Positions 21,927 to 48,511 of a stretch of 64,000 nucleotides of DNA are shown piece by piece. Origin of the DNA: Escherichia phage AV112; sequence record OR352942.1. One strand, written 5' to 3'. The notes under the pieces were generated by a model that saw only the letters and a program-made list of their open reading frames with translations, ran no database searches and was not told the origin of the DNA. The position numbers were made by a program, and so were the translations under genes. Within the stretch, counting starts at the first letter, position 1; each line of letters starts with the position of its first letter.

Positions 21927-22186
21927 TTAAAATATTCTCGCAGTTGGTCGAATCCACCAATGTGACTTCCGTCAGGAGCAAACACTTGAGGCATAGTCAA
22001 TCCGACTTGTGATTCACGTCCAAGCTTAACCAGAAGCTCAGCAATTTTCTCATCATCAAAAACACCTTTTTCTGGCATAACATTAATGAATTCGAATGGC
22101 TGTTTCTTAACAGTCAGTAATCGTTTCGCATTATCGCAATAAATGCATTTATGAATAGTAGAGTCATACCCGTACACTTTAAACAT
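21923..22186 (-). CDS. nrdC: Glutaredoxin NrdC (T4 thioredoxin)
   Basis: Start trimmed to MFKVYGYDSTIHKCIYCDNAKRLL, which is near-identical to recalled T4 NrdC (87 aa). Confidence 0.9.
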   Translation of the reverse strand: MFKVYGYDSTIHKCIYCDNAKRLLTVKKQPFEFINVMPEKGVFDDEKIAELLVKLGRESQVGLTMPQVFAPDGSHIGGFDQLREYFK

Positions 22187-22592
22187 TATTTTTCCTTTCA
22201 TCGATTAAATATGCAACGCCAAATACAATACATGTAATAAAACCTGTGATACAGATAGAAACCAACAACACTGTACCAAAGAACCAAATCAAGTTATCTT
22301 TAGTAGTTTGTTTGATATCCATCTCACGAATTTCTATAGCTATTGTATCACCTTTATTCAGAAGCGTATAAAACGACGGTGATACATGCCTGTCAAAAAC
22401 TCGACCTTGTTCATCTTTATAAACTGCAATAAATTCCAGTTTAGAATATTTTCCTGTAGATTGACCTGAAATTAATTCCACTACCTCCACAGGAATTACT
22501 TTAGTTTCCATGTAAGTATTCTGGCTGTTCCAAATGAATGGAATGATGGCAAAAACTAAAGCTACAATAAAACAACGAAGGCTATATCTCAT
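22179..22592 (-). CDS. Membrane protein
   Basis: 137 aa with N- and C-terminal hydrophobic segments. Confidence 0.5.
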   Translation of the reverse strand: MRYSLRCFIVALVFAIIPFIWNSQNTYMETKVIPVEVVELISGQSTGKYSKLEFIAVYKDEQGRVFDRHVSPSFYTLLNKGDTIAIEIREMDIKQTTKDNLIWFFGTVLLVSICITGFITCIVFGVAYLIDERKNNV

Positions 22593-22897
22593 TATAATGT
22601 TCTCTCAAATTTGTGGAAGCATTTACGGCATTTCAATTTCAAGTTATCAGTGGTCCAGTTAACCAGTTGGACTTGGATAGTTCCACATTCCGGGCATGGA
22701 TGTTTTGCTGCCGATTTGGCAGCATTTTCACGTCGTTCAACCATTTTCATTATTTCGTTCCATGCCGGAGGAACGAACTCTTCTTCACCGTGGATTTTAT
22801 CTCGCTGAACAAATTCAATCTTTGAACTATCGTCAATAAACTTAACCAAGCTGTGATTAGTGCTCATGTCAATATCCTCTAAAAGACGTAGTTTCAT
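22592..22897 (-). CDS. Zinc-ribbon protein
   Basis: 101 aa with CPECG...CRKC. Confidence 0.45.
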   Translation of the reverse strand: MKLRLLEDIDMSTNHSLVKFIDDSSKIEFVQRDKIHGEEEFVPPAWNEIMKMVERRENAAKSAAKHPCPECGTIQVQLVNWTTDNLKLKCRKCFHKFERTL

Positions 22898-23847
22898 TAT
22901 AAAACCTCAATGGCATTTCGTAAACCATCCGCTTTTGCATTCAGAGCTTTTAATGATTTAGTTTGTTCTGCAATCTGGGCTTCAACTTCTTTCAGACGAG
23001 ATTTGAGGTATTCGCGTTCTTCTCTTAAGTTATCAACTTTTTCTGCTTTAGGCTCTTTAATAGGCTTAGGTTTATACGTATTAGGGTTCTTCAGTTTAAT
23101 TAGAATGCGTGAACTGTACAGCATTGAACCATTATCTTCGGTTTCGTCATACATTTCCACTACGTCCATCATCTCCACCATCGTGCAGAGTTTATAAGAC
23201 AACGAACGAATAGTTTTGTTGTGCTTATTAATTTCTTTAGAGTTCATGGTGCCTAGATTACGCGAGTAGTAATAAGGAACCTGGATATCAACTGACAATG
23301 ATGCGTTACCATTGCCAGTTGGTTTGAATACTGCAGTAACCCAATCTTTAACATGAACTTTATTTGTACGGCCATCACCGCCAGTGAATAATTTACGAGA
23401 ATGTTTAAAAAGCATATTCACTTGGTTATTGAATTCACAAGCAAATTTATCAGCAAATTTAGTTTCAGGAATGGTAGATAACCAATCAGCTAAATGAGTC
23501 TTTTTAACATCGTTAATAATAGTAAATTCAACCAAATCAGTTTTAGATGTCACAGATTTAATAAAGCTCGGCTTCATAAAGTTTTTAATGTTATCGCGAG
23601 CTACAGTAGAAGATAATAAACGAGAACGTTTGAACCATTGAAGCAGTGTCCCTAATGAATGAGAATACGCATTCTGAGTATCTTTACAGATATGATTTTC
23701 TTGGCCTGTGTATGTACCAAAATCGCGAAGAATACCGCTTACTACAACTCGGTGTGGAACATCAAATCCTAATGAACCAGAAGCACGTTGGGCATGAACG
23801 TTAGCGATAAGACCTGCAAAATAATCAATGTAATGTGAACGTGTCAT
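22897..23847 (-). CDS. Hypothetical protein with coiled-coil C-terminus (tandem paralog 1 of 3)
   Basis: 316 aa; the C-terminal ~45 residues are heptad-rich (LREEREYLKSRLKEVEAQIAEQTKSLKALNAKADGLRNAIEVL). Confidence 0.55.
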   Translation of the reverse strand: MTRSHYIDYFAGLIANVHAQRASGSLGFDVPHRVVVSGILRDFGTYTGQENHICKDTQNAYSHSLGTLLQWFKRSRLLSSTVARDNIKNFMKPSFIKSVTSKTDLVEFTIINDVKKTHLADWLSTIPETKFADKFACEFNNQVNMLFKHSRKLFTGGDGRTNKVHVKDWVTAVFKPTGNGNASLSVDIQVPYYYSRNLGTMNSKEINKHNKTIRSLSYKLCTMVEMMDVVEMYDETEDNGSMLYSSRILIKLKNPNTYKPKPIKEPKAEKVDNLREEREYLKSRLKEVEAQIAEQTKSLKALNAKADGLRNAIEVL

Positions 23848-23875
23848 AATATTTTCCTCTCGTTAAGATAGAAAG

Positions 23876-23905
23876 ATTATACTCCAACCGTCCTTGGTTG
23901 TAAAC
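23876..23905 (-). promoter_or_regulatory. Sigma70-type early promoter
   Basis: Minus strand reads GTTTAC, an 18-nt spacer, then TATAAT. Confidence 0.5.
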
Positions 23906-23909
23906 TGAT

Positions 23910-24842
23910 TTATGATTTTAATGCATTCATTGCGTTAAAAAGTTTAGAGTACTGCAACTGGAGCTTGGTAACTACTTGTTGAGCATCACGAAGCTTAGCT
24001 TGTGCTTTGTCAAGTTCAACAGACAGTTGATCCACAGTGCCTTTGATTTGATTATAATAGTAATCTTCGGCAGGAAGAAGGCCGTTAGAGATTTCCAGTT
24101 TAGTCGTCGGTGTGCCGTTAAACATAACAGGTTGTGCTGAAGCTGCATTAATCTTACCGATAGTCGGGGCGACAATAATTGACGCTTCGAACGTTGCATT
24201 TTCCTTTTTAAGATTTTGATAGTATTCAGAGTCTTTGTGCCACCATGGCGCAGGAACCTTTTTACCAATAGATACACGAGCCTGGATAGCGATATGGCCC
24301 TTATTCTTGATAACGTCGATAATATTAAGCTCACGAGAATAAATTGCTTTAATCTGGTGAATATTATCACCTAACACTTCCAACGCTTGGTGGAATACAC
24401 GAGCAACGTTATCATTCTTAGGTTTATACGTAAGAGTGAACTCGTTCTCACTGATAACCATGATTTCTAACTTATCGTAAGTATATTTCAAATGTTTCAT
24501 GTTAATTGCTTGAGGACGAATACGAGAAGCAATGGCCATCAGATTGTTAAGGTTATTCCGGAACTGCTTAGCGAAATATTGTCCTTCACCACCAATACAA
24601 AAATTACGAAGTTTCTGTTTGGCTAATAAACGGCTGAACTCACCGTTTTTAATGAACTCTTTAACGGGTGTGTTAGTAACGCATTCAAATTGAGTAAACT
24701 TACGAGAAGTAATCCCATAATATGAACAGATTTCCTCAATCTCTTCAGGAGTCTTTACAGGCATACGGATAGGATTAGGACCTGGGGTATATGCGTTCGA
24801 GGTAAATTCTTTGATAAGTTCTCTACGTGTAATAGAAGCCAT
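23910..24842 (-). CDS. Hypothetical protein with coiled-coil C-terminus (tandem paralog 2 of 3)
   Basis: 310 aa; C-terminal coiled coil (VDQLSVELDKAQAKLRDAQQVVTKLQLQYSKLFNAMNALKS). Confidence 0.55.
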   Translation of the reverse strand: MASITRRELIKEFTSNAYTPGPNPIRMPVKTPEEIEEICSYYGITSRKFTQFECVTNTPVKEFIKNGEFSRLLAKQKLRNFCIGGEGQYFAKQFRNNLNNLMAIASRIRPQAINMKHLKYTYDKLEIMVISENEFTLTYKPKNDNVARVFHQALEVLGDNIHQIKAIYSRELNIIDVIKNKGHIAIQARVSIGKKVPAPWWHKDSEYYQNLKKENATFEASIIVAPTIGKINAASAQPVMFNGTPTTKLEISNGLLPAEDYYYNQIKGTVDQLSVELDKAQAKLRDAQQVVTKLQLQYSKLFNAMNALKS

Positions 24843-24897
24843 TTTATATTCCTCATGTTGAAAAATTTATTATACTCCAACCATCCTTGGTTGTACA

Positions 24898-25893
24898 TCA
24901 TTCCTTAAGAAGTTTTACTACTTGAATAAGATTAGCTCGTTCTGTTTTATTTTTACCGTTTAAGCCTGCTAATCGTGAGATTTCATCGTCAGTCTGTTGA
25001 ATAGTTACATTAAGTTCGTTAATCAAAGCTTCAAAGTATTTGATTTGCTCAGCATGTTTTGATTCAAATTTCTGAACCGGAATAACGTCTTGGTTTAGTT
25101 CATCAATAAGGTCTTTAAGAGCATCTTCTTGATTGATATCATATTCAACTTCTTTTATTTCTTCAACGAGCTCGTCTTTATATCTAACGTCTTTTAGTCC
25201 TGGTGCTGGTCCTGAAATCTCTTCTTTAAGAGTACAAACATATCCAATACGGTATCCAATGCCGTCTCGCTTGATATCAACTTCGTCAATAAATCCACAA
25301 TGTTTAAGACCAGAGCCGATTAAGTCAAAATATCCTTGACGACGTCCTTCAAACGTTACACGAACTACTAAGACAGTTTTACCTGCAACCTTTTGAAGCT
25401 CACATTTATAAAAGTTTGTTGAACCTGAATAACGTGGATGAGTTTTAAAGTTCATCTGACGATCTAGGCCCATTTGTAAGCGTGCTGATACGGCCATAAA
25501 ACGTGTTTGGTTCTCGTTAAGATGAGCAACAATCCATTTCAAAGGCATTTTACACTGTTCACGACCGAACAAATCAGTACGTCCTAGATTACGCAGGATG
25601 TTGTTAGAGTTAATCATCGACAGAACATTAAGTTTATTCAGCGCGCTGAAGATTCCATCAGCCATTGATTTTCCGTAACCTTTACACGCTTTAATAAGCG
25701 CTCGCGGTAGATTAGCATAGATTTCAGACGGCATATGAAAATCAAATTTACTAGTCAGTAATTGATGAACTTGGATAGCAATTTGCTCATAATTAAGTGC
25801 TCTGCGATCATTATGATCTTTAAACCACACTTTAATCTGTGAAGCACATAAACCGTTAATTTCATGTTTTACCGCATCAGATGTAATGCTCAT
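24898..25893 (-). CDS. Hypothetical protein with coiled-coil C-terminus (tandem paralog 3 of 3)
   Basis: 331 aa; C-terminal coiled coil. Confidence 0.55.
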   Translation of the reverse strand: MSITSDAVKHEINGLCASQIKVWFKDHNDRRALNYEQIAIQVHQLLTSKFDFHMPSEIYANLPRALIKACKGYGKSMADGIFSALNKLNVLSMINSNNILRNLGRTDLFGREQCKMPLKWIVAHLNENQTRFMAVSARLQMGLDRQMNFKTHPRYSGSTNFYKCELQKVAGKTVLVVRVTFEGRRQGYFDLIGSGLKHCGFIDEVDIKRDGIGYRIGYVCTLKEEISGPAPGLKDVRYKDELVEEIKEVEYDINQEDALKDLIDELNQDVIPVQKFESKHAEQIKYFEALINELNVTIQQTDDEISRLAGLNGKNKTERANLIQVVKLLKE

Positions 25894-25928
25894 ATCTATT
25901 TCCTCAGATTGAATTGGAACTCAAAACC

Positions 25929-25953
25929 ATTATAACCCGTCCTTGGGTAAAGC
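25929..25953 (-). promoter_or_regulatory. Candidate MotA-dependent middle promoter
   Basis: Minus strand reads cGCTTTA (MotA-box-like), a 13-nt spacer, then TATAAT. Confidence 0.4.
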
Positions 25954-25955
25954 GT

Positions 25956-26483
25956 TTATGCGTGAACCGTCTTTAAACGTTCTTCAAATTTCCGAAGAGT
26001 ACTAATACGTTCTGCTTTCTGTTTTGTATAGTTTGCAATACGTTCTGAAGTGAGAGCGTATCGTTCGTTTACTGTTTCTTTCATGAAGTCAGGGATTTCA
26101 CGAGAAGCTTTAATTTCATCAAACTTATCGAGTACTGCCTGGTCTTCAGCGATTAAATTTTCGTACATCTCGATATCTTTCTTGATGAAGTCGATATCTT
26201 CCTGGGTTACTTTGGATAAACGAGATGCTTTATCCTTTTTGTATTGCTCGTTAGTTTCACGAGACCAGAATAATGTACGTTTTTTGTTAGTGTTTTTGTA
26301 GACTTCCACAATTCCAACTGAATCGATGATAGCAATCCAATTCCAGCGAGATTTGAAAATCTGACCTCCGTCCACGGTAATCTCGTTACCATAAGCAACA
26401 TCATTAAAGAACTTGCTTTGTGCTTCAGATTTAAATTTACCGTCGTTATAATTTACCAGGTTGAAAATATCTTTAGCGTTCAT
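25956..26483 (-). CDS. Hypothetical protein
   Basis: 175 aa ORF. Confidence 0.5.
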   Translation of the reverse strand: MNAKDIFNLVNYNDGKFKSEAQSKFFNDVAYGNEITVDGGQIFKSRWNWIAIIDSVGIVEVYKNTNKKRTLFWSRETNEQYKKDKASRLSKVTQEDIDFIKKDIEMYENLIAEDQAVLDKFDEIKASREIPDFMKETVNERYALTSERIANYTKQKAERISTLRKFEERLKTVHA

Positions 26484-26510
26484 GTTTTACCTCCAGTAGT
26501 TGATAGGTCT

Positions 26511-26539
26511 ATAATAACACAACCATAGACCTTGTAAAC
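26511..26539 (-). promoter_or_regulatory. Sigma70-type early promoter
   Basis: Minus strand reads GTTTAC, a 17-nt spacer, TATTAT, then AGACCTATC. Confidence 0.55.
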
Positions 26540-26541
26540 AA

Positions 26542-26829
26542 CTAAAAGAAACTTTTTTCGGTATTTTTTCCACTGAACCAAACCGACTTCGGGACTTTCT
26601 GTAATTTTTCGGATTTAAGTTTCTCTTCCTGTTCTTTCTTATATGCATCCTTGTCGTACTGGAACAATTCTAAGGCATTCTTTTGTAGACGGTCTAAGGT
26701 AATTAAGGCTTTAGTTTTTCCTTTCAAGGAAGAGTCCTGGCGAACCTCCTCGCTATATTGCATCGTAGAACTAACCATACGATGAGCATACAGTTCGACT
26801 GCGGCTTTAATTTTTTGCATAAAATCCAT
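26542..26829 (-). CDS. Hypothetical protein
   Basis: 95 aa ORF. Confidence 0.45.
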   Translation of the reverse strand: MDFMQKIKAAVELYAHRMVSSTMQYSEEVRQDSSLKGKTKALITLDRLQKNALELFQYDKDAYKKEQEEKLKSEKLQKVPKSVWFSGKNTEKSFF

Positions 26830-26967
26830 AACATATCCTCTTTGATTTGTACACCATTATTTTTAAATATTTCTATGCCCTCAGTAGGTTCCTGGTGTCC
26901 TTCTTTGAGGTAAGCCATATGATTATTCATCTTTATGGCTTTTGTTACCTCAGAACTTCCTATAAGC

Positions 26968-27969
26968 TTATTTCAGTAAAGTAACTTCAGAGATTTCCTC
27001 CCAACCATCTTTATCAGTTGAAATAAAATCTGCTACATAAAGAGCCGTACGTAATGATACATTGCGAAGACGAGATACATTAGCCTTCATCCAGGACAAT
27101 GCTTTATACGTTTCTGCATCTGTCAGACCACGTTTCTGCATCATGTCAGTAGATAATATTACATCTTCAACTCGAACCATAATCTCTTCATTAGAGTGTA
27201 CTCCAAGGTCGAGATACACTGAACGAGATACTAAAGCTTGAAGGTGTGGGGCAAGTTTCGAACCGCGTTCTAACTCTTTATCGATATCAACGTTTGTAAT
27301 GAAAACGATAGTACCTTCAAACTCAAATTCTTTATCAATACCCTTATCATCGAGATAAGATGACGCAGTGCTCCAACAAACTTTGCGTTTATCTCCAGTA
27401 TCTAATGCTGCTTTAAGAAGGTTCAAGATGTCCATATCTGAGAATACGTCAACGTCGTCGATTAAGAGAACGCTGTCTGCATCACGGTTGAGCCAAAGTT
27501 GTTCGTAAAGGCCAATACCGGAGATTTTACCATTAATGCTTTTGTATTTGATGAAACCATTATCATTAGCGTTATTAAGTGCTTTATCCAGAGAATACGT
27601 CTTACCAATACCGGCTGCACCTGAAATAATGAGTGAACGAATTTTGCCATCGATAATGCCATTCGTCATCATGTTCATTACTTTAAAGCGTTTGTTGATA
27701 CGAGTTTTCATATCTTCAGTGCTTTCAACAACTGCAACTGGTGACGTCTCAACTCCTTCCATTACGATGTCTGATTTGAAGACCCATACTCCACGTTCAG
27801 ACCCATCAATCATAACGAAAATTTTACCATCACCTAAGTGGGAACATTCAGGATTAAGCTTTGCTGGGAACCATGTCTTTGTGGCAACATAAGAACCAGA
27901 GATTTCGTTATTACGATAAATACCTTTTTTGATTTGAACGTTGAACATTTTATTCTCCAATTTACTCAT
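26968..27969 (-). CDS. P-loop NTPase (AAA-like ATPase)
   Basis: Walker A IISGAAGIGKT and Walker B VLLIDDVD. Confidence 0.6.
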   Translation of the reverse strand: MSKLENKMFNVQIKKGIYRNNEISGSYVATKTWFPAKLNPECSHLGDGKIFVMIDGSERGVWVFKSDIVMEGVETSPVAVVESTEDMKTRINKRFKVMNMMTNGIIDGKIRSLIISGAAGIGKTYSLDKALNNANDNGFIKYKSINGKISGIGLYEQLWLNRDADSVLLIDDVDVFSDMDILNLLKAALDTGDKRKVCWSTASSYLDDKGIDKEFEFEGTIVFITNVDIDKELERGSKLAPHLQALVSRSVYLDLGVHSNEEIMVRVEDVILSTDMMQKRGLTDAETYKALSWMKANVSRLRNVSLRTALYVADFISTDKDGWEEISEVTLLK

Positions 27970-27986
27970 TTCGTTTCGATAGGTCT

Positions 27987-28015
27987 ATAATAACATGTTT
28001 AAAGCAAAAGTAAAC
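27987..28015 (-). promoter_or_regulatory. Sigma70-type early promoter
   Basis: Minus strand reads GTTTAC, a 17-nt spacer, then TATTAT. Confidence 0.55.
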
Positions 28016-28017
28016 AA

Positions 28018-28236
28018 TTATTTGCGACGAGATTTTTTGGTAAGAGGTTGAAAGAACACTGCTTTACCTGCTGGGGTTAAGGTGACTCGTAATGCATTAC
28101 CGATTCCTAAGGATGCTTTAACTAGACCTTTAGCTTTCAGTTCACCGAATGCTTGACGTTGGTCTGCATCACGAGTGTTAACCATAAGACCTTTATCACC
28201 TGCTTCACGAATCATTTCTAACATTTTGGTTTTCAT
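28018..28236 (-). CDS. Small hypothetical protein
   Basis: Start placed at MKTKMLEMIRE, preceded by AGAGGAGAACAAA-ATG. Confidence 0.45.
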   Translation of the reverse strand: MKTKMLEMIREAGDKGLMVNTRDADQRQAFGELKAKGLVKASLGIGNALRVTLTPAGKAVFFQPLTKKSRRK

Positions 28237-28344
28237 TTTGTTCTCCTCTTGTTTTGATAGGTCTATAATAACATATCCTAAAAGCATGTACACTACTTTT
28301 TAAAAATATTTTAACCCCCTAAAGGGACCCGAAGGTCCCCACAT

Positions 28345-28626
28345 TTACTTATCGCACTTAGCAACATAATTAGGCATATCACAGAATACGGAGCGAGTAA
28401 CTACTCGGCCCTTTGACCATGCTTCAGTTGCTTGTCCGGCTGTGCTATTAATATAGCTTGATCTAATGTTCTCAATACCCTGAGAATGTGATGCATTTAC
28501 CGAACCATTAGAAGACCCAGAAGACTGGTTACCACCAGCTCCTGCGCTACCGCTGGCTGCACCCGTGGTAGCACCAACAGAGAATGCCATCATTACTGCG
28601 AATAAACCAATTACTATTTTTTTCAT
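28345..28626 (-). CDS. Secreted Gly/Ser-rich small protein
   Basis: N-terminal signal peptide MKKIVIGLFAVMMAFSVGA, followed by a Gly/Ser/Asn-rich region. Confidence 0.5.
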   Translation of the reverse strand: MKKIVIGLFAVMMAFSVGATTGAASGSAGAGGNQSSGSSNGSVNASHSQGIENIRSSYINSTAGQATEAWSKGRVVTRSVFCDMPNYVAKCDK

Positions 28627-28657
28627 ATTTACCTCAAGTTAATGGTTATTTATCTAC

Positions 28658-29647
28658 TTATTTATAGTAAGAATTATGATTTTCGAGATAGACTTGTTCA
28701 AGGAAGTCATCCCAGAAACTCATATCTACTTTTTGTTGCATACCGTTCTTGGCAGCTTGTTCTGATGCATGTTCAACTTGGTCAACGATATCTTCTAGGA
28801 ATTCTTGTACAGTTTTAAACGTATGTTTACCAAGCTTAACATCGAGAATAAATGGAGCATCCTGAAGTGGGTAAACCAGGTCGCCGGTTTTATAAATTTC
28901 TAATAGTTGAAGTCCACCACGACATGCATGACTCAATGCTTTCCAGTCAATACCTTCGTTAGCTTCTGCCTTACGAGCACGTTCACCATAGTTCTCTTCC
29001 AGTTTAACCAGGATGGCATTGAACTCTTTATTGGTTAACGTGTCTTGGAATTTACGGTCTAACAGATTATAGAATGTTTGCTTACCTGTTTTCTCGTTTT
29101 CAGTTTCAACCCACGAAGCAAATTCACCTACAGGCAGAACATTCTTCATATGTGATAAACGAATTACTGCACCATTATCAAAGTATTGTCCCCATTCATT
29201 AGAACGTTTAAGGGCTTGACGAAGAACAGCCAGTCGAGAACCCTTGACACCGTATTTAGAAGCTTGTTTACGGACATACCCTAAATAAGATTTCATGTTA
29301 GTGGTATAGAAACGAGACCTGTTATCTTGAATATACTTCCATACATCAGGCAAATCGGATTTAACTACTAAACTTGGTGGAGTGTGAAGCATATCTAATG
29401 CGACGGTTTCGCCATCTGCAGCTAGTTTAAAGAAATATTTGAGACTATACAACTCATGGTCCACGTCGTCTTTTGTGTTCTTAGAAGATGTGTTATTTGT
29501 GTTCTTGCTCATATGTTCTTTAACGTTACCGGTCAAGATATCACGAGCATGAGGGACATAAATTTCTTTAAAATCGACGTCAGATTCAGGAGTAGACGTT
29601 CCATAAAGGTGGCTACCAAAGTAGCCTTTCATAATTGTTTTCATCAT
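28658..29647 (-). CDS. Nucleotidyltransferase-fold protein (Pol-beta superfamily)
   Basis: N-terminal GSHLYGTSTPESDVDF matches the GS-x(10)-DxD active-site signature of minimal NTases and of the OAS/CD-NTase families. Confidence 0.5.
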   Translation of the reverse strand: MMKTIMKGYFGSHLYGTSTPESDVDFKEIYVPHARDILTGNVKEHMSKNTNNTSSKNTKDDVDHELYSLKYFFKLAADGETVALDMLHTPPSLVVKSDLPDVWKYIQDNRSRFYTTNMKSYLGYVRKQASKYGVKGSRLAVLRQALKRSNEWGQYFDNGAVIRLSHMKNVLPVGEFASWVETENEKTGKQTFYNLLDRKFQDTLTNKEFNAILVKLEENYGERARKAEANEGIDWKALSHACRGGLQLLEIYKTGDLVYPLQDAPFILDVKLGKHTFKTVQEFLEDIVDQVEHASEQAAKNGMQQKVDMSFWDDFLEQVYLENHNSYYK

Positions 29648-30117
29648 TTGGCCTTATATTCGAGAGTAGGACAGATTTTTTCTTTACGAGCTTTAAGGTA
29701 TTCACCTATTAATGATTTCTTACGTTCAATAGGCTCAAGACCATTTTTAATTCGTTCTTGGTTTTGTGCAATGAGCTCAATTTCTTTATAATATTTTCTG
29801 TCGTTATATTTGTCTAACAACCAAGACGGACCAATTACCAACCCGGTAGCAATAAAAGCCATGACTGCTACCATTAAAATGCCTACACCAATTGAGGCCG
29901 GAACTAATGTCCATAGACTGCTAAAAACAAAGAATCTAGTTAAAATTTCCTGGCCAATGATTACTACTGCTGCTAAAATAGCAAATCCAATAATTGAAAC
30001 AGACAATACTGGGATTAACGTTTTCCAAAAATAAGCACACAACGTTTTCGGGCGATTCCATGTACTATTGAACGCGGCATAAATTTTAAAGTGCCAAGAG
30101 TTTTCATTGATAATCAT
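29644..30117 (-). CDS. Membrane protein
   Basis: 157 aa with two to three predicted transmembrane helices. Confidence 0.5.
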   Translation of the reverse strand: MIINENSWHFKIYAAFNSTWNRPKTLCAYFWKTLIPVLSVSIIGFAILAAVVIIGQEILTRFFVFSSLWTLVPASIGVGILMVAVMAFIATGLVIGPSWLLDKYNDRKYYKEIELIAQNQERIKNGLEPIERKKSLIGEYLKARKEKICPTLEYKAK

Positions 30118-30126
30118 AATAATTCC

Positions 30127-30657
30127 TTATTTCAAAGTCGGGATAATAGAATCAAGATAAGCTTTAAGAGCAACTGCTTCATCTTTGTCTAATGTAATGA
30201 TATGTTGACGAAGGTCATCAATTTGACGAATAACTACGACATCGCCATCTTCATAAGAAGGATTAACGCCTAAGACCGTTGTAGAGTCAGGGTTGGCCGG
30301 ATTTGTAATAAAAGCATTACGGCATTTAGCCCATTGAAGTTTGGCCTTTTTGGCTGTTTCAGATTCCACGAATTCTTTCACCTTAGTGACGAATGTTTTC
30401 CAATTATTAATAGAAAAACATTCGTCTTCAGTTTCGATATTAACCCCACTATAAAGTCCATGATAAAAACGAACTTGAAGGTCTTCGTCAATGTTAATTA
30501 CAGATGCATGGCCCGGTGGATTGAGTTTCAAAATCTTGTCCAGTTCCATAGGAAGAATAGTAGCAGCATCATCTTCTTGTGTCAGAACATACACATAACC
30601 ACGTTTTTCGATACATAAATCACCAAACAACTCGGTTGTTTCAATTACAGTTTTCAT
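30127..30657 (-). CDS. Hypothetical protein
   Basis: Start placed at MKTVIETTELFGD; the ORF-track start is a TTG codon. Confidence 0.45.
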   Translation of the reverse strand: MKTVIETTELFGDLCIEKRGYVYVLTQEDDAATILPMELDKILKLNPPGHASVINIDEDLQVRFYHGLYSGVNIETEDECFSINNWKTFVTKVKEFVESETAKKAKLQWAKCRNAFITNPANPDSTTVLGVNPSYEDGDVVVIRQIDDLRQHIITLDKDEAVALKAYLDSIIPTLK

Positions 30658-31216
30658 ATTATTCACCAATTAAAGTTTCAACAAAATTCACCAAAGCATT
30701 CTGGCAAGCATCAACCTGATTTTCATAAAAGTCTCCGTTATCATTTACCGCATGATAAGCTACATCATTCAAATCTGAATCGGCTTCACGTAAGTCACGG
30801 ATAAGGTCCATCAATTTATTAGCTTGTTCACGGGTCATTTTACCATACTCGTTTCAATAAGATTCACTATGCCGTTTACCATGTTATAAGTAAACATCGG
30901 ATAATTGTATTGTACTACAACATAAGCGATAAGCAAAAGTTTCATTTTGTTCTCCATTTGTTTTGGTAGGATTACTATATCATAGTCCTACCAAGACGTA
31001 AACTACCGATTGTGTTTTAAATGTTGATAAAGTTCTTCAACTTGTTTAGGGTCCAAAACAATTAAGTCATTTTCTTGGCGAAGATAAATCCATCCCTTAT
31101 CCCCAGGGCCATTTTTACAAAACATCACCACCGTATCATCATCTTCAGCGCTTTCAGGTAAAAGTTCAAGTACACCGTCTTCAGATTTTCCAGTATAATC
31201 GTAAAGCATAATGTCC

Positions 31217-31812: not shown

Positions 31813-32025
31813 TTAATTTTGGCCAGTATTTATTTTTCGCCTTTGGACGGCCTTAACATCTGTGAGGTATTTTTCCAGCTTGCGCTTGCGTGTATAATCA
31901 GCTTTAGAACCAGTTTGACGGATATCCTCGTTTAAATGAGAAATAGAATGTCCTAATTCTCTTCGGATTTCATCCAATTGGGTTACAGTAAGATTACGAA
32001 GTTGTCTTTCGTTTAATTGCTGCAT
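31813..32025 (-). CDS. Hypothetical protein (rI.-1 position)
   Basis: 70 aa ORF. Confidence 0.4.
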
Positions 32026-32052
32026 ATATACCTCTTGGTTAGATATTAGTAT

Positions 32053-32634
32053 TTATAACAACCCTGTCAAATCATTCCAATGCTTCCGGCATAATGACAC
32101 ATATCTATCAGTATCACCAATTTCAATTTGACTGCCATCTGTAATTGGAAGTCCGTCTTCCGTGACTCTAGCTACCATTGTGGCCTTTTTACCACAGTGA
32201 CAGACACCTTTAAGTTCAACAAGCTTATCAGCAATAGCCATTAACGCTTGAGAACCTTCAAATAGATTACCTTTAAAATCTGTTCGTAGTCCATATGCCA
32301 TTACCGGCACATTGTATACGTCAACAATACGACTAAGTTGATACACCTTTTCAGTAGTTAAGAACTGAGCTTCGTCAACAAATACACAATGAATATCCTT
32401 TTGTGCTGCAGCCCATTTATAGAATTCAAAGATATCCATGTCTTTTGTAATTATATTGGCGTCCTGACGAATACCAATACGAGAGACTATTTCACCTTTT
32501 GAATCACGAGTATCAATAGCCGGTTTAAGAACTAATACACCCATGCCACGTTCTTTATAGTTATGTGCGGCAGTAAGTAATGAAGCAGACTTACCAGCGT
32601 TCATAGCGGCATATGTAAAAATTAAACTAGCCAT
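32053..32634 (-). CDS. tk: Thymidine kinase
   Basis: 193 aa; P-loop AAMNAGKS and a C-terminal Zn-ribbon CHCGKKA...C; collinear with recalled T4 Tk. Confidence 0.93.
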   Translation of the reverse strand: MASLIFTYAAMNAGKSASLLTAAHNYKERGMGVLVLKPAIDTRDSKGEIVSRIGIRQDANIITKDMDIFEFYKWAAAQKDIHCVFVDEAQFLTTEKVYQLSRIVDVYNVPVMAYGLRTDFKGNLFEGSQALMAIADKLVELKGVCHCGKKATMVARVTEDGLPITDGSQIEIGDTDRYVSLCRKHWNDLTGLL

Positions 32635-32635
32635 T

Positions 32636-32824
32636 TTAATCCTTAGTTAAATTTTCTAAATATGTTTTTAAATCATTTTCAGCTTTATCGATAGATTTTA
32701 CTAATTCGTAATATGTTTCGGCATCTCCATATTCAGAAGATAATTCAAAAGACAAATCCTTTTCTAAACTAATAATTTCACCAACTAAAAATAATATTTC
32801 GTTCTTTTGTTCGCGAGTAATCAT
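32636..32824 (-). CDS. Small acidic protein (tk.x paralog)
   Basis: 62 aa; similar to the neighbouring 63-aa ORF. Confidence 0.4.
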   Translation of the reverse strand: MITREQKNEILFLVGEIISLEKDLSFELSSEYGDAETYYELVKSIDKAENDLKTYLENLTKD

Positions 32825-33012
32825 AAGGAATTTATATAATCAATGAGTTCTTGTTCTTTATTATCGAATTCTTTAGAAAGTTCTTCGTACTCGTTTGCAC
32901 TAAAAGGACCGCATTCATTACAAACTTTTTCCAATTCACTATTTTTATCCATAACTTCATGGATAAGAGAAAAGAGTTTGTCTTTTTGTTCTTTACTTAA
33001 ACTCATAACCAT
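32821..33012 (-). CDS. Small acidic protein (tk.x paralog)
   Basis: 63 aa. Confidence 0.4.
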   Translation of the reverse strand: MVMSLSKEQKDKLFSLIHEVMDKNSELEKVCNECGPFSANEYEELSKEFDNKEQELIDYINSL

Positions 33013-33230
33013 GTCACCTTTAAGCAGTATTCTTCTACATGCTGTTTACGACCTTTCTTATCAATAAAGGTATATTCAACGAATGTTCCGATGTAGTCTT
33101 TATCTACATCATGTGGACTATTAATTGGACATTTGGTACGACAAATGCGTTCCCATTGACGAATAATTACTGCCTTATTCTTTGGGTCATATGGATGTGG
33201 ATAATGTATATTCATAATAATGGTTCCCAA
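33003..33230 (-). CDS. Hypothetical protein
   Basis: 75 aa ORF. Confidence 0.4.
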   Translation of the reverse strand: MGTIIMNIHYPHPYDPKNKAVIIRQWERICRTKCPINSPHDVDKDYIGTFVEYTFIDKKGRKQHVEEYCLKVTWL

Positions 33231-33709
33231 TCAACAATCACAATTTCTAGTTTAGTGGAATACGTATCTAAAATCTCTTCGATGACATCCCAGTTTCCAC
33301 CACCGATACCTGCACCAATTCTTGGCATATAAATTACAGGCTTTGTTATCTTATTCTTTCCGAATTCATTTAATTCTATTATACAATTCATTAAAGCATA
33401 GTACTCAAAATTAGGTCCAGGCTCAAACTGTGTATAAAGATTAAAGCAATAAGCTTTATGGGTCTTAAAATATTTTTCATAAACCGAATAAGTCCCGAGT
33501 TTAGACTCGTCTCCGAATTCGGTTTGAAGTTTATCGGCTTCTAAAATTTTTGGATAAGCCTTTGCTAATTGTCCTGCCACACCAGCGCCCATTGTATGAA
33601 AACAATTACACCCATGAGCAATATTATTACCTTTAGAAAACAGGGCGACAATATCGCCCTTGATATAGTTTTTAATCACTTGCTGCAAGTCCTCTAGTAT
33701 AAGAGTCAA
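33212..33709 (-). CDS. Macro-domain protein (ADP-ribose binding/processing)
   Basis: Gly-rich motifs NIAHGCNCFHTMGAGVAGQLAK and IGAGIGGGNW are characteristic of macro domains. Confidence 0.5.
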   Translation of the reverse strand: MTLILEDLQQVIKNYIKGDIVALFSKGNNIAHGCNCFHTMGAGVAGQLAKAYPKILEADKLQTEFGDESKLGTYSVYEKYFKTHKAYCFNLYTQFEPGPNFEYYALMNCIIELNEFGKNKITKPVIYMPRIGAGIGGGNWDVIEEILDTYSTKLEIVIVDWEPLL

Positions 33710-34019
33710 CTAGACGGTCCACCATAGAATTGCATGCTGCCTTATCTTTAGGTTCCGCCACCGAGCATTCTAATATTTGCCATTTTTTATAGTATCTTTT
33801 AATTAAGGTAGACGCCTTGAACCTACTAGTCGCCCCATCTTTTTCTCCGTCTTTATACGCATATAACAATTTTTGTGAAAAATCTACTTTACACTCTTGA
33901 CTTTTACCACAATAATCAGACGCTGTTCTGTTTGTATACTCCGTTACATCAGTATATGTAGTATTAGCAAGAGCGTTAAATGAAACCAAGCCAACTATTA
34001 AAGCCAACATTTTGGTCAT
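33672..34019 (-). CDS. Secreted protein (T4 vs position)
   Basis: 115 aa with signal peptide MTKMLALIVGLVSFNALA; assignment is by position only. Confidence 0.4.
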   Translation of the reverse strand: MTKMLALIVGLVSFNALANTTYTDVTEYTNRTASDYCGKSQECKVDFSQKLLYAYKDGEKDGATSRFKASTLIKRYYKKWQILECSVAEPKDKAACNSMVDRLVDSYTRGLAASD

Positions 34020-34558
34020 TCTTTTATTTCCAGTAGTTTGTTTGATTTAAGGTAATTAGCCTTTTCTAGGACTTCAGAAGCATATTTACTTCCAGCACTT
34101 GTCTTCCATCCCGCATTATATGAGGATATAGCTTTTCTTATATCCCCGTTATGTATATTTAACCAATAAGAAAATTCGATATAAGCCCATCTGGCTGAAT
34201 TAGACCGCTTAGATAGCATTTTCTTAATTTGGGCATCAGTCATATTATAACCAAGCTGGTTAATTCTTGCCCTCATTGTTGGTAGATAATTTTGGAACAT
34301 TCCATACGCATGGTGACCTTTCTTATCTTTAAGATTAATACCGGCAGATGATTCCTGCCATAGTATTGCGGCCATTATGTATCCAAGTCCTTTCTTATGC
34401 ATGTTTTCATGCGTTTTAAATTTTCCATCCTTAGAAAACTGTTCCCCAAACTGATAAGCATAATTCAAGTTATCGAGTTGGACATTACTAAAAGTATGCT
34501 CGGAGCTATGTGCTGATAATGAAAGAGCAAATAGACCAGCGAGTAGTGCTTTTCTCAT
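34016..34558 (-). CDS. Periplasmic lytic transglycosylase-like protein (SLT domain)
   Basis: Signal peptide plus LWQESSAG and GMFQ motifs typical of SLT-family catalytic sites. Confidence 0.55.
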   Translation of the reverse strand: MRKALLAGLFALSLSAHSSEHTFSNVQLDNLNYAYQFGEQFSKDGKFKTHENMHKKGLGYIMAAILWQESSAGINLKDKKGHHAYGMFQNYLPTMRARINQLGYNMTDAQIKKMLSKRSNSARWAYIEFSYWLNIHNGDIRKAISSYNAGWKTSAGSKYASEVLEKANYLKSNKLLEIKE

Positions 34559-34566
34559 GTTTACCT

Positions 34567-35025
34567 CTAGATTTTAATCACTGCTTTAGAAGCTTTTCCT
34601 GGTAGTCGTTTACTGTTAATAATAGCCATTCTGCATTGAAGAGTCTTCATTTTGAACGCTGGATTTTCGCGACAAACTGTAAGTCCTAACCAAAGATTTC
34701 CGTCAGTTATTTCTAAACGGCCTGGGCGATATTCGACACCTTCGACAAAATCTTCATCAACATCTGGACGTGCCGGCATTGATAAAAATTCTGTAACTTC
34801 TTTAACATGATTTTTTACTTTACGAAATAATTCAAAAACGTAGTTCTCATCTATTTCTCTCTGGATGGCACGATCTAAGAGATGTTGAGAATACTTGATA
34901 TGAAAGCCTGGTAGTCCAAGAGACTTTGCAGCATCTTTTATACCGGCATTTATTTTGCGGAACTCCGTTTCAAAGATTCGACGGAGTTTATTACGGCGGA
35001 TAAAAACGTCAGAATTGATAGTCAT
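34567..35025 (-). CDS. regB: Endoribonuclease RegB
   Basis: 152 aa; MTINSDVFIRRNKLRR...YSQHLLDRAIQREIDE...RMAIINSKRLPGKASKAVIK is near-identical to recalled T4 RegB. Confidence 0.88.
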   Translation of the reverse strand: MTINSDVFIRRNKLRRIFETEFRKINAGIKDAAKSLGLPGFHIKYSQHLLDRAIQREIDENYVFELFRKVKNHVKEVTEFLSMPARPDVDEDFVEGVEYRPGRLEITDGNLWLGLTVCRENPAFKMKTLQCRMAIINSKRLPGKASKAVIKI

Positions 35026-35054
35026 TTTTTATTTCTCCTCTAGTTGACAGGTCT

Positions 35055-35083
35055 ATAGTAACACATCTAGAGGAGAAGTAAAC
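35055..35083 (-). promoter_or_regulatory. Sigma70-type early promoter upstream of regB
   Basis: Minus strand reads GTTTAC, a 17-nt spacer, then TACTAT. Confidence 0.5.
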
Positions 35084-35087
35084 TACT

Positions 35088-35303
35088 TTATTGATAAAAT
35101 GGAGTTAAAGCCCAAGATTCTTTAGATACCATATCGGCGAAATGCCTCATCTCTTCGATTTGGCGACGACGCTGGTCAGCATAGTCTTCTTCGCCTTCTT
35201 CCTTACAATCTTCAAGGTCTTCTTCAAGATACTTTAAGTATTCACTACAAATTTTGTTGATCTTTTCTTGAAAGTCCAATAACCCTGTAATAGTAGAAGC
35301 CAT
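35088..35303 (-). CDS. Small acidic protein (vs.3 position)
   Basis: 71 aa ORF. Confidence 0.4.
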   Translation of the reverse strand: MASTITGLLDFQEKINKICSEYLKYLEEDLEDCKEEGEEDYADQRRRQIEEMRHFADMVSKESWALTPFYQ

Positions 35304-35569
35304 TAGTATTTTTCCTCAGGTCGAAATACTGCACGACACGCCCACATGCTGGCTTCTTTTAGATGTTGCTTAGCATACTTAAGAGCCTGCACTGCATCCA
35401 TATCTTCTTTGGTTTGTTGCTCTGATTCATTTTCTTTCAAGATATATGCTTCTTCAATCAGAGCATCAAACATCAATCCAAGACGGACTTCTGCATCTTT
35501 AATAGCGTTCACTTTACTGATTTTATCATCGGTATGCGGCTTGTAGCCTTTGATGTCTTCAATCGACAT
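35303..35569 (-). CDS. Small protein in the T4 vs.4 position (candidate Acb2-like cyclic-nucleotide sponge)
   Basis: 88 aa from MSIEDIKGYKPH, preceded by GAGGAAATTCCTT-ATG; identity is by position only. Confidence 0.35.
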   Translation of the reverse strand: MSIEDIKGYKPHTDDKISKVNAIKDAEVRLGLMFDALIEEAYILKENESEQQTKEDMDAVQALKYAKQHLKEASMWACRAVFRPEEKY

Positions 35570-39800: not shown

Positions 39801-40259
39801 TTATAGGAGGGTAGTGAGCACCTTATATAATGATTTGCCCATTACATATTCCCATTGAGAAGGTTTAATTAAAGCGAATGCATCAAATTCAGGAATCTGA
39901 CGTCCGTCTTGGAATGTATGATAGGAATTACAAACACTGTTTCTGAATTGCTCGTGCTCTACAGGGATGGTATATAGGAACAGATGAATATTCTTATTGT
40001 CTGAGTAATGATGTTCACCTAGGTCTTTCAGGAAGGCAGGGTCATATTGTGTAAACCCAGTTTCTTCTTCGCATTCACGAACAGCGGCTTCGATAGGAGA
40101 TTCACCTGGCTCGACACGGCCTTTAGGAATATCCCACCGATGAGCTAAAGAACCTTTAGGACGAGAACCAGTTACACGCCCCATGAATAATTCTTTATCT
40201 TCGGTAAGGAAAATAATACCGGCTGATAGTTCTTTCACTTTATTTTTCTTACTCATCAT
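39801..40259 (-). CDS. nudE: Nudix hydrolase NudE
   Basis: Nudix box GRVEPGESPIEAAVRECEEETGF; lies next to e as in T4; the start among the two or three adjacent Met codons is uncertain. Confidence 0.85.
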   Translation of the reverse strand: MMSKKNKVKELSAGIIFLTEDKELFMGRVTGSRPKGSLAHRWDIPKGRVEPGESPIEAAVRECEEETGFTQYDPAFLKDLGEHHYSDNKNIHLFLYTIPVEHEQFRNSVCNSYHTFQDGRQIPEFDAFALIKPSQWEYVMGKSLYKVLTTLL

Positions 40260-47683: not shown

Positions 47684-47759
47684 TGGTCGAGACAGTAGGG
47701 GTCGAACCTACGACCTAGGACTTAGAAGGTCCTTGCTCTTCCTTCTGAGCTATGCCTCG
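47684..47759 (-). tRNA. tRNA-Arg (anticodon TCT)
   Basis: Manual cloverleaf: acceptor CGAGGCA/TGTCTCG, D-arm GCTC-AGAAGGAA-GAGC, anticodon loop CTTCTAA, T-arm GTAGG-TTCGACC-CCTAC, encoded CCA. Confidence 0.85.
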
Positions 47760-47763
47760 GATT

Positions 47764-47838
47764 TGGCGGACATGCATGGATTCGAACCATGGACCAATTG
47801 ATTAACAGTCAACTGCTCTACCACTGAGCTACACATCC
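47764..47838 (-). tRNA. tRNA-Asn (anticodon GTT)
   Basis: Manual cloverleaf: acceptor GGATGTG/CATGTCC, anticodon loop CTGTTAA, T-loop TTCGAAT, encoded CCA. Confidence 0.8.
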
Positions 47839-47842
47839 AAAT

Positions 47843-47929
47843 TGGTTGGGAGTGATGGAGTCGAACCACCTGAGTCGCAATGACAATGGATTTACAGTCC
47901 ACACCGCTACCTCTACGGGATAACTCCCC
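47843..47929 (-). tRNA. tRNA-Tyr (anticodon GTA), long variable arm
   Basis: Anticodon arm GTGGA-CTGTAAA-TCCAT, long variable arm, T-arm GGTGG-TTCGACT-CCATC, encoded CCA; the 5' acceptor boundary is uncertain by 1 nt (a 1:72 mismatch if the start is 47929). Confidence 0.6.
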
Positions 47930-47938
47930 AAATTAATT

Positions 47939-48013
47939 TGGTGGCCCTGGGTGGAATTGAACCACCATCTGGCGATTATGAGTCGCTTGCTTGAACCTTC
48001 CAGCTACAGGGCC
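47939..48013 (-). tRNA. tRNA with CAT anticodon (Ile-lysidine type as in T4, or Met)
   Basis: Acceptor GGCCCTG/CAGGGCC, anticodon loop CTCATAA, T-arm GGTGG-TTCAATT-CCACC, encoded CCA. Confidence 0.8.
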
Positions 48014-48014
48014 T

Positions 48015-48090
48015 TGGTGCTGATTGACGGAATTGAACCACCGACCTTCTCATTACAAGTGAGTTGCTCTACCTACTGAGCTAAATCAGC
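48015..48090 (-). tRNA. tRNA-Thr (anticodon TGT)
   Basis: Acceptor GCTGATT/AATCAGC, D-arm GCTC-AGTAGGTA-GAGC, anticodon loop CTTGTAA, encoded CCA. Confidence 0.85.
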
Positions 48091-48095
48091 AAAAC

Positions 48096-48185
48096 TGGCG
48101 GAGGCGATAGGATTTGAACCTATGAGTCGCCGGAGCGACTGCCGGTTTTCAAGACCGGTGCATTAAACCACTCTGCCACGCCTCC
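48096..48185 (-). tRNA. tRNA-Ser (anticodon TGA), type II
   Basis: Acceptor GGAGGCG/CGCCTCC, anticodon arm CCGGT-CTTGAAA-ACCGG, long variable arm, T-loop TTCAAAT, encoded CCA. Confidence 0.85.
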
Positions 48186-48187
48186 AG

Positions 48188-48261
48188 TCTCCATACAAGG
48201 ATTTGAACCTTGGACCTCCTGATCCCAAATCAGGCGCTCTACCAAACTGAGCTACACGGAG
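48188..48261 (-). tRNA. tRNA-Pro (anticodon TGG)
   Basis: Acceptor CTCCGTG/TATGGAG (C1:G72), anticodon loop TTTGGGA, T-loop TTCAAAT; CCA is not encoded. Confidence 0.8.
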
Positions 48262-48271
48262 TAAATTAAAT

Positions 48272-48345
<74 letters not shown>

Positions 48346-48350
48346 AAATT

Positions 48351-48437
48351 TGGTGCGAGAAGTGGGACTCGAACCCACAAGGAAATCATTCCGCAGCATT
48401 TTAAGTGCTGTGCCTTTACCAATTTGACCATTCTCGC
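48351..48437 (-). tRNA. tRNA-Leu (anticodon TAA), type II
   Basis: Acceptor GCGAGAA/TTCTCGC, anticodon arm CAGCA-CTTAAAA-TGCTG, long variable arm, T-arm GTGGG-TTCGAGT-CCCAC, encoded CCA. Confidence 0.85.
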
Positions 48438-48438
48438 G

Positions 48439-48511
48439 CTGGGAATAAAGGACTCGAACCTTTGCATCCTGGAATCAAAATCCAGTGCCTTACCAACTTG
48501 GCTAATTCCCA
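48439..48511 (-). tRNA. tRNA-Gln (anticodon TTG)
   Basis: Acceptor TGGGAAT/ATTCCCA (U1:A72, typical of Gln), anticodon loop TTTTGAT, T-loop TTCGAGT; CCA is not encoded; only 1 nt separates it from tRNA-Leu. Confidence 0.85.

Follow-up and report, generated by a model that had tools for sequence, protein, structure and literature searches.

An ortholog of T4 tk.4 (adfM) in an RB69-like Escherichia phage: a macrodomain protein and candidate reverser of DarT2 DNA modification

The tk.4 gene and its surroundings

The window analysed here is the whole 64,000-nucleotide stretch of Escherichia phage AV112 (sequence record OR352942.1), on the minus strand of which an ORF is present at 33212..33709 (165 aa counted from the first TTG). 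In megablast comparisons, window positions 32000-35100 proved 100% identical to Escherichia phage AV113, a member of the RB69 group (Straboviridae, Tevenvirinae, Mosigvirus), and some further 150 phage records (approximately) match this segment at 97-99% identity. The ORF belongs to a same-strand run of abutting or overlapping genes comprising, from upstream to downstream, a RegB-like endoribonuclease ORF, vs.1, vs, the macrodomain ORF, three small ORFs and thymidine kinase. This order matches that of T4 (regB-vs.1-vs-tk.4-tk.3-tk.2-tk.1-tk), and the macrodomain ORF is therefore placed as tk.4, which in JS98 and EcS1 likewise lies between vs and tk.3 within the regB-vs-tk cluster. Its product agrees with T4 Tk.4 (NP_049723.1) at 130 of 155 positions (84% identity, 94% similarity, gapless, E 8e-104). 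Judged by sequence and position, the gene is the Mosigvirus ortholog of T4 tk.4, also named adfM (anti-DarT factor macrodomain). A preliminary description of this DNA had rightly called a macro-domain protein here, but had not recognised the gene as T4 tk.4, as its 84% identity and synteny indicate. The gene itself is already known: it is annotated and widely conserved among T-even phages, and a function has been published for it in T4. GenBank names for its orthologs already include "macro domain protein", "Poa1p-like family protein" and "phosphatase", and relatives of its product at E<=1e-5 occur in at least 2,792 phage records representing many host genera.

The functional coding sequence most likely occupies 33212..33679 on the minus strand (155 aa, GTG start, stop codon included) and specifies a single macrodomain, an assignment that draws on the AV113 annotation, the 84% match to T4 Tk.4, Pfam Macro, AlphaFold2 and Foldseek. 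The upper boundary proposed earlier, a TTG at 33709, lies 30 nt (10 codons) too far upstream. We prefer the GTG at 33679 because it is annotated as the start in the identical AV113 record; because in alignment it coincides exactly with the tk.4 ATG of T4, JS98 and EcS1; because in T4 an in-frame TAG directly precedes that ATG, so that an N-terminal extension is impossible there; and because a putative Shine-Dalgarno sequence, GAGGA (33690..33694, minus strand), stands 10 nt upstream within the 3' end of vs, its T4 counterpart lying 11 nt upstream of the tk.4 ATG. The TTG was rejected on these same grounds. The start of tk.4 overlaps the stop codon of vs (GTGATTAA) and its stop overlaps the start of tk.3, an arrangement typical of translationally coupled T4 early genes. 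In these overlaps, in length, in position between vs and tk.3 and in retaining every family-invariant residue, the gene resembles that of T4, from which it differs by 25 amino acid substitutions, one example being GIGGGNW rather than GIGKGNW in the second Gly-rich loop, and by GTG in place of ATG. A long-range RNA pairing that would sequester the Shine-Dalgarno sequence at the start codon, suggested by a minimum-free-energy fold of the window sequence, was dropped, as it was not reproduced in orthologs.

The earlier placement of this gene in an "early region" appears reasonable on the basis of T4 synteny and motif reading, being consistent with the packed same-strand run from regB to tk, an early-promoter-like element and the absence of a late motif. 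The element in question, GTTTAC-17 nt-TACTAT (35055..35083, minus strand), was read from the sequence as T4-early-promoter-like; it lies upstream of regB and is the likely source of a polycistronic regB-vs.1-vs-tk.4 transcript. The late-promoter motif TATAAATA did not occur between 37515 and 32057, and a generic sigma-70 scan returned sites no more numerous than in shuffled sequence. Inside tk.4, at about codons 94-103, there is in addition a putative MotA-box, middle-promoter-like site, TGCTTTAATGAATTGTATAATAGAAT (33373..33398, minus strand), one of 12 matches to TGCTTNA-N11-13-TANNNT in the window, where 3.5 are expected; such a site would start transcripts within tk.4 that cover tk.3-tk.

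Inside codons 7-13 of tk.4 (33642..33660, minus strand) lies a hairpin resembling a terminator, AGGGCGAT-ATT-GTCGCCCT, with a U-rich tract after it. Of 38 distinct T4-like tk.4 5' ends, 17 have the hairpin at these codons, including those of T4, JS98-like and EcS1-like phages and of one distant clade, in which the stem is compensated as GGGAGAT/ATCTCCC (with an Ala to Ser change in the protein) or GGGCGAT/ATCGCCC. Sequences whose peptide reads GNIVE or GDIVK lack the hairpin. Within the hairpin, GGC, GTC and GCC are fixed at synonymous sites. Its covariation score is 0.223; shuffles give 0.152, with none of 500 reaching the observed value, and slid controls give no more than 0.131. The conserved peptide KGD(I/L)(V/I)(A/S)LF confounds this score. 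An Rfam search of 32500-35500 gave no match at E<=1. The role of the hairpin could be to dampen transcription entering tk.4-tk, or to make the mRNA more stable.

Other features of the window bear recording. An ortholog of T4 vs.4 lies at 35303..35569 on the minus strand (64% identity over 87 aa); we take T4 Vs.4 to be the anti-CBASS sponge Acb2, which would give two counter-defence genes within about 2 kb of the early cluster. A Nudix hydrolase gene in the position of T4 nudE (e.1) maps to 39801..40259, minus strand, by offset from the AV113 annotation, some 6 kb upstream of tk.4. T4 NudE hydrolyses ADP-ribose, which the macrodomain reaction is expected to release; any functional link between the Nudix gene and tk.4 is speculation. 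Ten tRNA genes (Arg, Asn, Tyr, Met, Thr, Ser, Pro, Gly, Leu, Gln) are clustered on the minus strand at 47684..48511, as is typical of T-even phages. Several AV113 CDS names around window positions 22000-31000 look like imprecise automated labels, among them "thioredoxin", "valyl-tRNA synthetase" for vs and "endonuclease" for regB; vs is a modifier rather than the synthetase itself.

Macrodomain fold and active site

Profile and structure analyses, which could have revealed a non-macro fold, instead returned a macrodomain throughout, and both Gly-rich motifs on which the macro-domain call had been founded, HTMGAGVAGQLAK and IGAGIGGGNW, are present in the translation. Pfam PF01661 (Macro), which has a gathering cut-off of 22 bits, gives the protein a score of 27.4 (E 3.4e-6) over profile positions 2-117 of 118, and PHROG 335 matches it with E 2.7e-66. 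Searched against the PDB as a single sequence (phmmer), it finds BT1257 (1.5e-10), Poa1p (1e-8), SCO6735 (7.5e-5) and, at about 1e-3, TARG1 and DarG; a profile of 74 homologs (hmmsearch) finds BT1257 (4e-17), TARG1 (1e-16), SCO6735 (3e-14) and DarG (about 1e-12). The AlphaFold2 model built from the homolog alignment is of high confidence (pLDDT 96.0, pTM 0.91), with alternating strands and helices, and the 50 Foldseek matches listed against the PDB are all macrodomains or macrodomain-derived designs, each with probability 1.00, the best being TARG1 (5e-10), Poa1p (TM 0.80 on the query), BT1257, the Taq and Mtb DarG proteins and SCO6735, followed by viral macrodomains. By profile and by model, then, the tk.4 product is a macrodomain, its model showing the three-layer alpha/beta/alpha macro fold, and conservation of both Gly-rich loops suggests that it would bind ADP-ribose.

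The active site was compared by hhalign, hmmsearch and MAFFT with those of BT1257, SCO6735, TARG1, DarG and PhiKZ gp104, the TARG1 sequence having been verified against PDB 2LGR. Thirteen residues are invariant among the 74 homologs, which extend down to 37% identity: G23, N25, G33, A35, D49, G62, N80, Y82, Q84, P119, I121, G122 and G124. Most fall in three segments, all encoded on the minus strand. Residues 25-35, NCFHTMGAGVA (33575..33607), include the conserved Asn and the predicted first Gly-rich, phosphate/ribose-binding loop; G31 is conserved in at least 90% of the homologs, and N25, G33 and A35 in all of them. The column of Asn25 holds Asn also in T4 Tk.4, BT1257, SCO6735, both DarG proteins (Taq, Mtb) and PhiKZ gp104 (Asn23), and Ser in TARG1. 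Residues 119-130, PRIGAGIGGGNW (33290..33325), with P119, I121, G122 and G124 invariant, align with PRIGCGLDRLQW of TARG1 and form the predicted second Gly-rich, diphosphate-binding loop. Residues 80-84, NLYTQ (33428..33442), hold the invariant N80, Y82 and Q84, the last of which stands in the catalytic-Lys column.

The occupancy of that column divides the proteins compared. Gln is found here and in T4 Tk.4 (Gln84), in BT1257 and in SCO6735 (Gln85), whereas Lys is found in TARG1 (Lys84), in DarG (K80 in Taq, and likewise Lys in Mtb) and in PhiKZ gp104 (within FPTK). The column of TARG1 Asp125 is occupied by Gly in the present protein and in T4 Tk.4. SCO6735 cannot remove ADP-ribose from thymidine DNA without Gln85, the Q85A variant being inactive, and the authors of that study propose a water-mediated mechanism distinct from that of the Lys enzymes (PMC9411070). 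They further describe an extended mobile loop, some five residues beyond DarG and TARG1, as characteristic of the SCO6735/BT1257 subclass (PMC9411070). In the MAFFT alignment this loop, which follows the Gln/Lys position, is 5-6 residues longer in BT1257 and SCO6735, but short in T4 Tk.4, TARG1, DarG, PhiKZ gp104 and the present protein, where it reads QFEPGPNFEY, the TARG1/DarG length. We accordingly do not claim full membership of the SCO6735/BT1257 subclass for Tk.4, given its lack of the long mobile loop. As read from these alignments, the T-even Tk.4 active site combines an SCO6735-type Gln with a loop of DarG/TARG1 length, and what the present analysis adds to the published picture is an invariant Gln84 where TARG1 and DarG align their catalytic Lys.

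Relation to characterized macrodomains

The Gln-type, ALC1-like proteins Streptomyces coelicolor SCO6735 (PDB 5E3B) and Bacteroides BT1257 (2FG1) share with Tk.4 the fold, the H-x-C-N and N-x3-Q motifs and the Gln at the Lys column, but they are only 22-29% identical to it and are cellular rather than phage proteins; nor does Tk.4 have equivalents of Lys34 and Lys89, which along with the longer mobile loop (5-6 residues) are implicated in DNA binding by SCO6735 (PMC9411070). Human TARG1 (OARD1) and yeast Poa1p, the best fold matches, have in common with Tk.4 the two Gly-rich loops and the PRIG-x-G motif. They part from it at the active site, where the Lys84/Asp125 dyad of TARG1 is replaced by Gln/Gly in Tk.4, and where Poa1p, an ADP-ribose-1''-phosphate (Appr1p) phosphatase, has Ser at the Gln84 position.

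DarG (Taq 5M31/5M3E, Mtb 5M3I; NCBIfam NF048014) belongs to the same ALC1-like macrodomain class and presumably acts on the same substrate, yet it carries Lys (K80) opposite Gln84 of Tk.4 and continues into a C-terminal DarT-binding domain, whereas Tk.4 ends after the macrodomain. DarG was the sole match in PADLOC and NCBIfam searches, over its macrodomain part. An identification as DarG proper was rejected, as the match to NF048014 reaches 30.4 bits against an equivalog cut-off of 250 and covers model positions 4-146 of 338, with neither the C-terminal domain nor the Lys, and with no adjacent darT, the neighbours of tk.4 being vs and tk.3.

Gp104 of the chimallivirus PhiKZ, a DarG2-like protein, resembles Tk.4 in being a stand-alone phage macrodomain directed against DarTG2 and in its conserved Asn (N23 there, N25 here). 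It differs in matching DarG macrodomains at 1e-24 to 1e-18 and in being of the Lys type, whereas Tk.4 as a single sequence matches DarG at about 1e-3; hhalign of the Tk.4 family with gp104 yields 20% identity. Gp104 is also imported into the phage nucleus, a structure that T-even phages lack. A strong DarG match with Lys in the one, and a weak DarG match with Gln in the other, argue that these proteins represent different macrodomain lineages. On this sequence evidence, T4 Tk.4 (Gln type) and the DarG-like PhiKZ gp104 (Lys type), which were each named AdfM independently, are phage macrodomains that are not orthologous.

Tk.4 as a counter to DarTG2

The preliminary description had suggested that the protein might reverse ADP-ribosylation of nucleic acids, and this proposal gains support from published work on the 84%-identical T4 ortholog, the knockout of which made the phage DarTG2-sensitive. 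In that preprint (bioRxiv 10.1101/2025.11.20.689424), HIDEN-SEQ on a host carrying DarTG2 shows depletion of one T4 gene only, tk.4, which is named adfM; a clean tk.4 knockout renders T4 sensitive to DarTG2; the toxin is described as ADP-ribosylating thymidine of ssDNA; and a hydrolase mechanism is proposed from structural similarity to Mtb DarG. T2 and T4 without adfN, which encodes the anti-DarTG1 NADAR enzyme AdfN, are still DarTG2-resistant (PMC11825919). Hydrolysis of DNA-linked ADP-ribose has been shown biochemically for PhiKZ AdfM, DarG, TARG1 and SCO6735: SCO6735 strips DarT-made ADP-ribose from thymidine (PMC9411070), and PhiKZ gp104 removes DarT2-made ADP-ribose from a DNA oligonucleotide in vitro, with lower activity in the N23A variant (PMC13309987; 2026). 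The searchable literature reports no biochemical assay of a T-even Tk.4. We favor a role in DarTG2 counter-defence because of the combined weight of orthology and synteny, fold, conserved residues and T4 genetics, and consider it highly probable that the tk.4 product acts as a DNA ADP-ribosylglycohydrolase, reversing the DarT2 modification of thymidine in phage ssDNA.

In such a scheme, a free-standing macrodomain of 155 aa would be made from the regB-vs-tk operon before DNA replication. Host DarT2 would transfer ADP-ribose from NAD+ onto thymidine within the TNTC motif of phage ssDNA and so block replication, as is established for that toxin. The fold and the conserved motifs suggest that Tk.4/AdfM would hold the ADP-ribose by means of the Gly-rich loops at residues 25-35 and 119-130, and its homologs, that it would hydrolyse the N-glycosidic bond between ribose and thymine, yielding unmodified DNA and free ADP-ribose. 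From the alignment and the invariance of Q84, the site would be of the SCO6735 type, Gln84 standing in for the Lys of TARG1 and DarG, with the distal ribose positioned for water-mediated attack. The phage would thereby escape DarTG2, an outcome established genetically for T4 tk.4 and probable for the 84%-identical ortholog described here.

Features of the protein itself temper this scheme. That Tk.4 has neither the Lys of DarG and TARG1 nor the long, Lys-bearing loop which SCO6735 uses to bind DNA speaks against a DNA hydrolase, and its mode of DNA binding is therefore not readable from known relatives. Nor does sequence alone reveal the substrate range, since the solved proteins nearest to it in sequence, BT1257 and Poa1p, include an ADP-ribose-1''-phosphate phosphatase. 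Such an activity, clearing a small-molecule by-product of RNA 2'-phosphate removal with no part in DNA repair, is indeed what existing annotation implies: T4/RefSeq Tk.4 is described as "phosphatase; contains A1pp phosphatase motif", PHROG 335 is labelled alike, and yeast Poa1p ranks among the best matches in both sequence (1e-8) and fold (TM 0.80 on the query). His22 and Thr29 moreover align with Poa1p His23 and Ser30, residues mutated in PDB 6lfs/6lft, although the rest of the pocket differs. Macrodomains, however, commonly show weak Appr1p phosphatase side-activity, and we know of no Appr1p-generating pathway specific to T-even infection. Poa1p also has Ser at the Q84 position, whereas the invariant N-x3-Q of Tk.4 is common to BT1257 and the DNA-ADP-ribose hydrolase SCO6735; and DarTG2 sensitivity is the sole phenotype found for T4 tk.4. 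Taken together, these considerations make a Poa1p-type phosphatase very improbable.

Protection might also be sought in the toxin rather than in the adduct, with Tk.4 binding and blocking DarT2 stoichiometrically as an antitoxin mimic. SCO6735 also inhibits DarT by direct interaction (PMC9411070), and protection might therefore not be purely catalytic; catalytically dead SCO6735 Q85A, DarG K80A and TARG1 K84A still inhibit DarT in vitro, SCO6735 most (PMC9411070), and the phage factors AdfA and AdfB appear to block DarT rather than reverse its mark (PMC11825919). Yet Tk.4 is without the C-terminal DarT-binding domain of DarG (the NCBIfam match being confined to positions 4-146 of 338, at 30.4 bits against 250), and the strict invariance of N25, G33, Q84 and G122-G124 across distant phage homologs points to an enzyme, so that we regard protection mainly by blocking as very unlikely. 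It is very improbable, in turn, that DarTG2 protection is a side effect of an enzyme acting chiefly on ADP-ribosylated proteins or RNA, or on immune signals derived from ADP-ribose (Alt/ModA/ModB marks, products of other host ART toxins, Thoeris). SCO6735 and TARG1 do act on protein as well as DNA ADP-ribosylation (PMC9411070), and the spread of homologs over at least 2,792 phage records and many host genera is wider than expected for one defence system. Experimental or contextual evidence for such substrates was, however, not found: no ART gene lies next to tk.4, the HIDEN-SEQ text consulted reports the gene under the DarTG2 condition only, and the degradation of Thoeris-type signals, which the preliminary description had offered as an option, found no supporting evidence either here or in the searchable literature.

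With reversal of the DarT2 mark retained as the preferred function, a bolder extension may be put forward, unlikely in our estimation: that T-even Tk.4/AdfM represents, among the hydrolases of DNA-linked ADP-ribose, a third way of building the active site, that its recruitment was independent of that of PhiKZ AdfM, a Lys-type protein derived from DarG, and that it might also act on protein or RNA ADP-ribosylation, as SCO6735 and TARG1 do. If this were true, the protein would erase ADP-ribose marks of many kinds, and could then adjust the Alt/ModA/ModB modifications made by the phage itself or protect against further defences based on ARTs. From a practical standpoint, mutagenesis or inhibitor work built on DarG Lys80 would not transfer to Tk.4. 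More broadly, two different macrodomain lineages seem to have been taken up by phages to serve one and the same counter-defence. The T4 anti-DarTG2 factor has an intact ortholog in RB69-like phages, a fact that helps to predict their host range against DarTG2-bearing E. coli.
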